NCBI RefSeq assembly: GCF_051903065.1
Contig: NZ_CP178438.1
DNA: 64,000 nt
Reading direction: 5' to 3' (one strand)
Origin: Escherichia coli
GTDB lineage: Bacteria > Pseudomonadota > Gammaproteobacteria > Enterobacterales > Enterobacteriaceae
In this document: positions 8,146 to 11,088 of the stretch, in pieces
How the letters are laid out: each line of letters opens with the position of its first letter
Position numbering within the stretch: the stretch's first letter is position 1
The notes under the pieces: generated by a model
Database searches by the model: none
What the model was told of the DNA's origin: nothing
The model's input: only the letters and a program-made list of their open reading frames with translations
Position numbers and translations under genes: made by a program

Positions 8146-8852
8146 TCGAACTCGTGATTGTATCGCGTCTCCTTGAATATCCGGATGCTGCCTTATGGCA
8201 GCATCAACAAGAGATGTTTGAGGCGATTGCCGCGTCGAAAAATCTGCCAAAAGAGGATGCCCATGCGCTGGGCATTTTCCTGCGCGATTTAACGACGATG
8301 GATCCGCTCGATGCCCAGGCGCAGTACAGCGAACTGTTCGACCGTGGCCGCGCCACGTCACTGTTGCTGTTTGAACATGTGCACGGCGAATCCCGCGACC
8401 GCGGCCAGGCGATGGTGGACCTGCTGGCGCAGTACGAGCAGCACGGCTTGCAGTTAAACAGCCGCGAATTGCCGGACCATCTGCCGCTGTATCTGGAGTA
8501 CCTGGCGCAGCTACCGCAAAGCGAAGCCGTGGAAGGTTTGAAAGATATCGCGCCGATTCTGGCATTGCTGAGCGCGCGTCTGCAACAGCGTGAAAGCCGT
8601 TATGCCGTGCTGTTTGATCTGCTGCTGAAACTGGCGAATACCGCTATCGACAGCGACAAAGTGGCGGAAAAAATTGCCGACGAAGCGCGCGATGATACGC
8701 CGCAGGCGCTGGATGCTGTCTGGGAAGAAGAGCAGGTTAAATTCTTTGCTGACAAAGGCTGCGGTGATTCAGCAATCACTGCTCATCAGCGTCGCTTTGC
8801 CGGTGCCGTCGCGCCGCAATATCTGAATATCACCACCGGAGGACAGCACTAA
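8142..8852 (+). CDS. narJ: Nitrate reductase assembly chaperone
   Basis: 236-aa ORF recognised as NarJ; 4-nt overlap with narH. Confidence 0.93.
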
Positions 8853-9529
8853 TGCAATTCCTGAATATGTTCTTCTTTGATATCTACCCGTACATAGCCG
8901 GGGCGGTCTTCCTGATTGGTAGCTGGCTGCGTTATGACTACGGGCAGTACACCTGGCGCGCGGCGTCCAGCCAGATGCTGGATCGCAAAGGGATGAACCT
9001 GGCGTCGAACCTGTTCCATATCGGTATTCTGGGGATTTTTGTCGGTCACTTCTTCGGTATGCTGACGCCGCACTGGATGTATGAAGCCTGGCTGCCGATT
9101 GAAGTGAAACAGAAAATGGCGATGTTTGCTGGTGGTGCCAGCGGCGTGCTGTGTCTGATTGGCGGCGTACTGTTGCTTAAGCGTCGTCTGTTCAGCCCAC
9201 GCGTGCGTGCAACCACTACCGGAGCGGATATCCTGATCCTGTCGCTGCTCGTTATCCAGTGCGCGCTGGGCCTGTTGACCATTCCGTTCTCCGCCCAACA
9301 TATGGACGGTAGCGAGATGATGAAACTGGTTGGCTGGGCGCAGTCGGTGGTGACCTTCCACGGTGGCGCTTCTCAACACCTCGATGGTGTGGCGTTTATC
9401 TTCCGTCTACACCTGGTGCTGGGGATGACGTTATTCCTGCTGTTCCCGTTCTCGCGTCTGGTACACATCTGGAGCGTACCGGTGGAGTATCTGACACGTA
9501 AGTACCAGCTGGTGCGCGCTCGTCACTAA
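8852..9529 (+). CDS. narI: Respiratory nitrate reductase A, gamma (cytochrome b) subunit
   Basis: 225-aa membrane protein recognised as NarI; start overlaps the narJ stop (TAATG). Confidence 0.93.
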
Positions 9530-9550
9530 GCGAATTTTAGTTCACATAGA

Positions 9551-9573
9551 CCCTGCTTCGGCGGGGTTTTTTT
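9551..9573 (+). terminator. narGHJI rho-independent terminator
   Basis: Hairpin ccctgc-ttcg-gcgggg followed by T7, 22 bp after the narI stop. Confidence 0.65.
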
Positions 9574-9596: not shown

Positions 9597-9668
9597 GTCG
9601 GATGCGCTTCGCTTATCCGACCTACAGGGGAGGATATTGTAGGTCCGGTAAACGCGGTGCCATCGGGC
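9597..9668. repeat. REP/BIME-type extragenic palindromic repeat pair
   Basis: gtcggatgcgcttcgcttatccgacctac followed by an inverted, REP-like copy ggtccggtaaacgcggtgccatcgggc; resembles the enterobacterial REP consensus. Confidence 0.5.
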
Positions 9669-9699: not shown

Positions 9700-9882
9700 T
9701 TTCAGGAAGTAATGGTGGTGGGGGAAGGATTACTAGCGCTTCGCCCTTCGGGTCGTTGCCTGCGGCAACGCTTTCTCGCTGGCGCTCGAGTCGAACCTTA
9801 GTCGAAGCTTCTCATCCTTCCCCGCTTGGGCAGAATATTTAATTACGGATTCGTTTGAGAGTTCAGGGACTTTTGAAAGTGA
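9700..9882 (-). repeat. tyrT operon 3' trailer repeat region (tpr/rtT-like), about one unit
   Basis: Contains a copy of the last 19 nt of tRNA-Tyr (tggtggtgggggaaggatt at 9713-9731) about 170 bp downstream of the second tRNA, plus a tpr-like ORF (minus-strand ATG at 9815) interrupted by TAA after 5 codons. Confidence 0.6.
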
Positions 9883-9967
<85 letters not shown>

Positions 9968-10001
9968 AGGGGTAATTCAAATTTCGAGGTAATGCTTGAG
10001 A

Positions 10002-10086
<85 letters not shown>

Positions 10087-10129: not shown

Positions 10130-10170
10130 GGGGCGCATCATATCAAATGACGCGCCGCTGTAAAGTGTTA
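10130..10170 (-). promoter_or_regulatory. tyrT promoter
   Basis: Minus-strand -35 TTTACA (10159-10164) and -10 TATGAT (10137-10142) with 16-bp spacer; GC-rich discriminator; predicted start about 43 nt upstream of the mature tRNA 5' end; matches the classic tyrT promoter sequence. Confidence 0.8.
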
Positions 10171-10245: not shown

Positions 10246-11088
10246 TTAAAGAATAATCGTCCGATTACCGTAAACAAAGACGCGCTGCGCCAGTACTTTG
10301 TAGAGCGCGCGACTTAAGACGTTTTTCTCGACGTCACGACCTGCACGCATCATATCTTCAGCTGTGTAGGTATGATCGACATGAATAACGTCCTGCATGA
10401 TGATTGGGCCTTCGTCCAGATTGTCATTAACATAGTGAGCTGTTGCGCCAATAATCTTCACGCCACGTTCATAGGCCTGGTGATAAGGACGTGCGCCGAT
10501 AAACGCTGGCAGGAAGGAATGGTGAATATTGATGATCTTATTCGGGAAGCGTGACACAAATTCCGGTGTTAATACCCGCATATACTTCGCCAGCACCACG
10601 TAGTCAGGTTGATAAGCATCAATGGCATCCGCCATCTTTTGATCGTGCTCGTTGCGGCTTAACCCTTCATGGCTTACCAGCTCAAACGGTATATCAAAAC
10701 GCTCAACCAGAGAACGTAAAGTATCGTGGTTACCAATCACTGCCGCGATTTCGACATCCAGGCCGCCGTAATTGGCTTTCATCAACAAATCGCCAAGGCA
10801 ATGCGCTTCTTTAGTGACCAGAATCACTATCCGGCGACGACCGGCAGGATTCAGCTCACGCACGGAGCCTTCTGGCAATGCGCTATCGAGATCCGCCAGC
10901 AGGGTGGAATCATTAAAAATCCCTTCCAGTTCCGTGCGCATAAAAAAGCGCCCGGTACGGTGATCAACAAATTCATTGTTCTGTACGATATTTAACTCGT
11001 GCTTGTAGCAAATATTGGTAATACGTGCGATCAGACCTTTTTGGTCCGGACAAATAGTACGCAGAACTTTACGTTGGAGTGAATGCAT
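10246..11088 (-). CDS. purU: Formyltetrahydrofolate deformylase
   Basis: 280-aa ORF recognised as PurU (ACT domain plus formyltransferase domain). Confidence 0.93.
   Translation of the reverse strand: MHSLQRKVLRTICPDQKGLIARITNICYKHELNIVQNNEFVDHRTGRFFMRTELEGIFNDSTLLADLDSALPEGSVRELNPAGRRRIVILVTKEAHCLGDLLMKANYGGLDVEIAAVIGNHDTLRSLVERFDIPFELVSHEGLSRNEHDQKMADAIDAYQPDYVVLAKYMRVLTPEFVSRFPNKIINIHHSFLPAFIGARPYHQAYERGVKIIGATAHYVNDNLDEGPIIMQDVIHVDHTYTAEDMMRAGRDVEKNVLSRALYKVLAQRVFVYGNRTIIL

Follow-up and report, generated by a model that had tools for sequence, protein, structure and literature searches.

The closest described systems are the RtT RNA and the Tpr protein of Escherichia coli K-12. According to Bosl and Kersten 1991, as cited in PMC3318445, PMC4986893 and 10.1101/2024.07.17.603846, RtT is set free as an RNA from the transcript of the tyrT operon, and these papers implicate it in the response to amino-acid limitation and in the stringent response, with an unknown mode of action. 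Altman et al. 1981 (cited in PMC11623569) described tpr as the gene of a protamine-like protein. In the reference genome NC_000913.3, tpr (b1229) lies inside rttR (b4425), the annotated RtT; the tRNA gene preceding the repeats is named tyrV in this record, and tyrT gives the operon its name.

K-12 carries four RtT copies. One lies in the spacer that separates the tRNA-Tyr genes, and the other three follow the distal tRNA gene, where TRF reports a tandem array of 178 bp in 3.1 copies. The spacer copy (L001 1503-1634) starts with GTG, and its codon 6 closes the frame, which reads GAC TAA. Trailer copy 1 starts with ATG, reads GAC CAA and remains open for 29 codons, which is the annotated tpr. 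Trailer copy 2 (L001 1978-2109) starts with ATG and reads GAC TAA at codon 6, and trailer copy 3 starts with ATG, has CAA at codon 6 and is closed by TGA at codon 10.

We compared this arrangement with the corresponding locus in the window, the whole stretch of 64 kb of E. coli DNA that was analysed. Two tRNA-Tyr genes and an RtT element are flanked by purU on the minus strand (10246-11088) and by narI on the plus strand (8852-9529). The promoter-proximal tRNA-Tyr gene (tyrT in the naming of NC_000913.3) occupies positions 10002-10086 and the promoter-distal one (tyrV) positions 9883-9967, both on the minus strand; ARAGORN assigned the anticodon GTA to each of them, and each scored 53.4 bits with the Rfam tRNA model. 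A consensus scan found a putative sigma-70 promoter-like site of the tRNA-Tyr operon at 10137-10164 (minus strand; TTTACA, 16 nt, TATGAT, with an upstream TG; 10 of 12 matches), and its position just upstream of the first tRNA-Tyr gene suggests that it may function as the promoter. The spacer between the tRNA genes (9968-10001, minus strand) is 34 nt long and holds no RtT copy; in K-12 it measures 209 nt and holds one (L001 1460-1668). The terminator of narI (9548-9569, plus strand) is separated from the RtT element by a REP-like palindrome (…GTAGGTCGGATAAGCGAAGCGCATCCGACAA…) at about 9600-9660, and K-12 has this palindrome too.

The segment 9713-9836 on the minus strand is one copy of the already known RtT element, RF00391. 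It covers the whole covariance model (positions 1-130 of 130) with a score of 118.9 bits, where the gathering score is 45, and an E value of 1.2e-25. Every pair of the Rfam structure is a standard pair in this copy, and its minimum free energy is -46.1 kcal/mol (z = -2.6). The element lies directly downstream of tRNA-Tyr, which ends at 9883, and it closes with a copy of the last 19 nt of this tRNA, CCA included (9713-9731, minus strand). Chance would predict no occurrence of this tail, AATCCTTCCCCCACCACCA, in the window, and it is found exactly three times, twice as a tRNA 3' end and once at 9713-9731. The complete genome of strain ECNB21-M121 contains an identical 701-nt locus, in which PGAP labels the sequence "RtT sRNA, processed from tyrT transcript". 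The likeness to rttR of K-12 comprises the full-length covariance match, the helices, the 19-nt tRNA tail with CCA, and the location in the purU-narI interval, immediately after tRNA-Tyr. Release as a stable RNA is known from the literature for K-12, and it is predicted for the window strain. On the other hand, the two loci differ in score, the four K-12 copies reaching 133-138 bits, and in copy number. The preliminary description had counted about one trailer repeat here and given about three for K-12, and both counts were borne out: a single occurrence of the RtT core motif was found in the 64 kb of the window, which means that only one trailer repeat is present, in contrast to the 3.1 units of the K-12 array. 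TRF found no tandem array at the window locus, which fits a single unit.

In addition, the invariant RtT core CTTCGAC[T/C]AAGGTTCGA (9791-9814, minus strand) resembles the variable-arm/T-arm segment CTTCGAAGGTTCGA of tRNA-Tyr (9901-9920, minus strand). Beyond the 19-nt tail, the local alignment between RtT and tRNA-Tyr scored 19, compared with 13.7 ± 2.3 for shuffled sequences, 16 of 500 of which scored as high. This faint similarity hints that RtT may have been derived from the 3' third of tRNA-Tyr by an insertion in the T-loop.

Within the element, a minus-strand reading frame begins with ATG at 9815-9813, continues with AGA AGC TTC GAC (9812-9801) and ends with TAA at 9800-9798, as the preliminary description had stated. 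When the stop was ignored, we obtained the same read-through translation as that description, and the K-12 Tpr sequence that it had given proved exact (PRTL_ECOLI, "protamine-like protein", annotated as tpr b1229 in NC_000913.3). The tpr-homologous mini-frame (9798-9815, minus strand) comprises five codons and the stop, and its variable base is the T at 9800. The uninterrupted 29-codon Tpr frame is absent; the window shares with Tpr the homologous nucleotides, the ATG and the first five codons, MRSFD. Whereas tpr of K-12 has CAA at codon 6, the window has TAA, and the frame of its tail is shifted by an 8-nt deletion. Because of the stop and the change of frame in the tail, the 29-residue product cannot be made from the window copy. 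At codon 15 the window has AAG and K-12 has GAG, the window base being the majority state across species.

The stop had been presented as a truncation of tpr, that is, as a departure from an intact reference, and this part of the description does not stand. Codon 6 is indeed CAA in the annotated tpr copy of K-12, as had been expected, but two of the other three K-12 copies have TAA. These two, the spacer copy and trailer copy 2, read GAC TAA at the homologous position just as the window does. Unlike the window copy they are part of a multi-copy array, and the spacer copy has, besides its GTG start, a different 5' leader.

The state of codon 6 was then surveyed across species by scanning one genome per species with the pattern TGAGAANCTTCGNNNAAGGTNCGA. 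The scan returned 179 cores at 114 loci, nearly all of them in Enterobacterales, in genera that include Citrobacter, Salmonella, Enterobacter, Klebsiella, Pectobacterium and Pantoea. Among these cores, a set from which more divergent copies are missing because the pattern fixes the bases around codon 6 and leaves only the first base of the codon free, codon 6 was TAA in 117, CAA in 56 and GAA in 6. Only 11 copies have a frame of 29-30 codons, and in these the homologous sequence is read in two different frames. Across Enterobacterales codon 6 is most often TAA, and the open tpr of K-12 is the exception.

For the analysis of RNA structure, 128 unique RtT copies were aligned (alignment A2), and the Rfam consensus structure was projected onto them from the window copy. 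The results showed that 97.5% of the pair cells contain standard pairs, a proportion that fell to 41-55% once the 3' partners were slid by 1-3 columns, and that all six pairs of helix 5 have undergone compensatory changes. The variable base of codon 6 (column 37) belongs to helix 2 and pairs with an invariant G (column 94), as U-G in 87 copies and as C-G in 40. Since both C and U pair with this G, CAA and TAA both fit the RNA fold, and a change from one to the other is neutral for the RNA.

We consider it very probable that the window contains one RtT copy in which the tpr frame is a by-product and in which copy number and codon 6 show routine variation. According to this account, RtT is a structured RNA that shares its transcript with both tRNA-Tyr genes, each copy closes with the 19 nt of the tRNA, and the "tpr" frame is a by-product of the RtT RNA sequence. 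The open state, C in CAA, and the closed state, U in TAA, interchange freely while the pair with the helix-2 G is kept; the U of the window is the commoner state of the family, which two of the four K-12 copies have as well. The repeat number would have changed most likely through slippage or unequal recombination, both among the 178-bp units and among the 19-nt tRNA-tail repeats. Three observations count against this account, namely that tpr is still a CDS in NC_000913.3, that it was described as a protein gene (Altman et al. 1981), and that 2,029 genomes contain the exact 90-nt frame, which could result either from recent common ancestry or from selection.

The same observations would support a different explanation, in which tpr is a genuine coding gene that was lost here by a nonsense mutation and repeat deletion, a pseudogenisation with phenotypic cost or benefit. 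The curated K-12 annotation retains b1229, UniProt and NCBI carry Tpr as a "protamine-like protein", and the exact frame is found in 2,029 of 5,426 genomes. The distribution of the frame in the same 5,426 complete E. coli genomes, however, speaks against gene loss. A 34-mer with CAA at codon 6 occurred in 3,995 genomes, one with ATG..TAA in 1,828, and one that requires both CAA at codon 6 and CGA at codon 10 in 2,929, while 727 genomes had no match to the 90-nt trailer-type tpr query. An open tpr is possible in only 37-74% of the genomes, and the counts for the CAA and the CAA plus CGA 34-mers imply that the full Tpr cannot be encoded in roughly 26-46% of them. Most other Enterobacterales copies have no open frame either.

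The pattern of substitutions is also at odds with a lost gene. Frameshifting indels occur between species: 76 of the 128 aligned copies lack one nucleotide within the tpr-homologous span, and 80 differ from K-12 tpr by a length that is not a multiple of three. Among 12 unique E. coli copies of the ATG type, the 13 variable sites are distributed as 10 at codon position 1, one at position 2 and two at position 3. Eleven of the 13 are nonsynonymous, including three that introduce a stop (codons 6, 10 and 25), to be set against two synonymous changes. Each nonsense change is a C-to-T transition at a G-paired C of RtT (columns 37-94, 49-60 and 96-34), which converts a G-C pair into a G-U pair. With 117 of 179 cores closed, frameshifting indels and an excess of changes at codon position 1, the tpr frame is not kept as a coding sequence among relatives and shows no sign of coding constraint.

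Furthermore, the ATG of tpr is located within the G+C-rich helix 1, and the GGAAGG purine run abuts it with zero spacing. Burial in the helix together with the lack of spacing should hinder translation initiation, which would likewise argue against a functional gene. NCBIfam contains no model matching Tpr, and PGAP annotates RtT but never calls tpr. A full-text literature search that included ribosome-profiling preprints returned no evidence for or against translation of tpr. Overall, Tpr is probably not translated or not a functional protein, and we regard loss of a genuine gene at this locus as very unlikely.

Two readings that would leave the frame some role have a very small probability. 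In the first, Tpr would be a protein of recent origin that emerged within a structured RNA and is polymorphic among strains, with the window strain as a natural null, the frame being opened and closed by G-C/G-U changes that are neutral for RtT. In the second, the five-codon frame ATG AGA AGC TTC GAC TAA, which is found in about two thirds of the Enterobacterales RtT copies, would be translated as a mini-ORF and affect how the tRNA-Tyr trailer is processed or terminated by Rho. Both are disfavoured, because the ATG is buried in helix 1 and RNA structure alone explains the conservation.

Beside the window, 15 distinct loci were read, in which RtT copies were located by a mismatch-tolerant search. 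The number of RtT copies per locus ranged from 0 to 6 in total, from 0 to 2 in the spacer and from 0 to 5 in the trailer, and the number of tRNA-Tyr genes was 1 or 2. Eight loci lack any 29-codon frame, including those of O157:H7 strain 611 and strain HS. The short tRNA spacer of the 34-nt type is also present in L003, L004, L006, L007, L014 and L015. The window copy itself is a mosaic of K-12 states, having leader segments like copies 1 to 3, TAA like copy 2 and ACTCGAGCGCC like copy 1, and the junction of the short tRNA spacer (34 nt) falls precisely on the 19-nt tail. A mosaic with such a joint is the pattern expected from unequal crossing-over, gene conversion or slippage involving pairs of 178-bp units and pairs of 19-nt tails, and a mechanism of this kind would probably account for the difference in copy number. 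As further variants at this locus, strain HS has two RtT copies within the tRNA-Tyr spacer (L008 1170-1553), and in TW08637, CD45 and ZH063 the tRNA-Tyr gene is present just once.

Short-read assembly often collapses tandem repeats with a unit of about 178 bp, and the single copy could in principle be an artefact in which a longer array was collapsed. This is highly improbable, since the identical 701-nt locus is found in the complete ECNB21-M121 genome, the private deletion junction of the window copy recurs in two further complete genomes, and loci with a single copy occur in several other complete genomes as well (L003, L005, L008 and L014). Nonsense-suppressor alleles classically map to the tRNA-Tyr genes found here, and 31 further codons are open after the TAA, but readthrough or recoding of the stop, for example by an ochre-suppressing tRNA, to give a 37-residue Arg-rich peptide has next to no probability, as stop-codon suppression is rejected by the wild-type GTA anticodons of both tRNA-Tyr genes in the window, the frame behind the stop varies between copies and species, and the C-terminal frame is altered again by the 8-nt deletion.

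Set against this background of variation in the RtT repeat, the 8-nt deletion is the sole rare feature of the window copy. Near its 3' end the element lacks 8 nt that every K-12 copy has, reading GAAGCGC|TAGTAATCC where these have GAAGCGCGCAGCGCTGAGTAATCC, with the junction at 9735-9736 (9736|9735 on the minus strand) as placed by the alignments. The deletion takes out a small hairpin (AGCG-CGCAG-CGCU) that Rfam leaves unpaired, and the covariance score is lowered from about 135 to 118.9 bits, a value still far above the threshold. A 34-mer across the junction was found in 3 of the 5,426 complete E. coli genomes, those of ECNB21-M121, 23CRST027 and 23CRST031; the 91 records that match the locus at an identity of at least 99% do not represent an allele frequency, as coverage varies between hits. 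Deletions of 4 or 8 nt are found at the same spot of RtT in other genera, and the segment therefore appears dispensable.

The TAA in the window is ordinary strain variation, a routine polymorphism in a known RNA repeat of variable copy number. It carries little weight for biology and somewhat more for annotation. In K-12, the antisense CDS ychS (b1228, 91 aa; L132 410-685, plus strand) covers about 1.5 repeat units, and for this reason it cannot be encoded in single-copy strains; in the window just a 29-aa remnant is present (9712-9801, plus strand). Like tpr, ychS is probably another chance ORF. Both K-12 CDSs behave as chance frames within a repeated structured RNA, and when another strain has a stop in tpr or ychS, this should not be counted as the loss of a gene. 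More generally, an overlapping frame is seen here to be opened and closed by G-C/G-U transitions in a helix, with no penalty for the RNA.

Finally, in strains AGR6128 and ZH063 (L011, L012 and L133) an island of about 7 kb takes the place of the entire RtT array. It is located exactly between the tRNA-Tyr 3' end and narI, and it carries fatty-acid and sterol desaturase-family, PAP2 phosphatase, F390 synthetase-related, MBL hydrolase, epimerase and KAS III-like genes.
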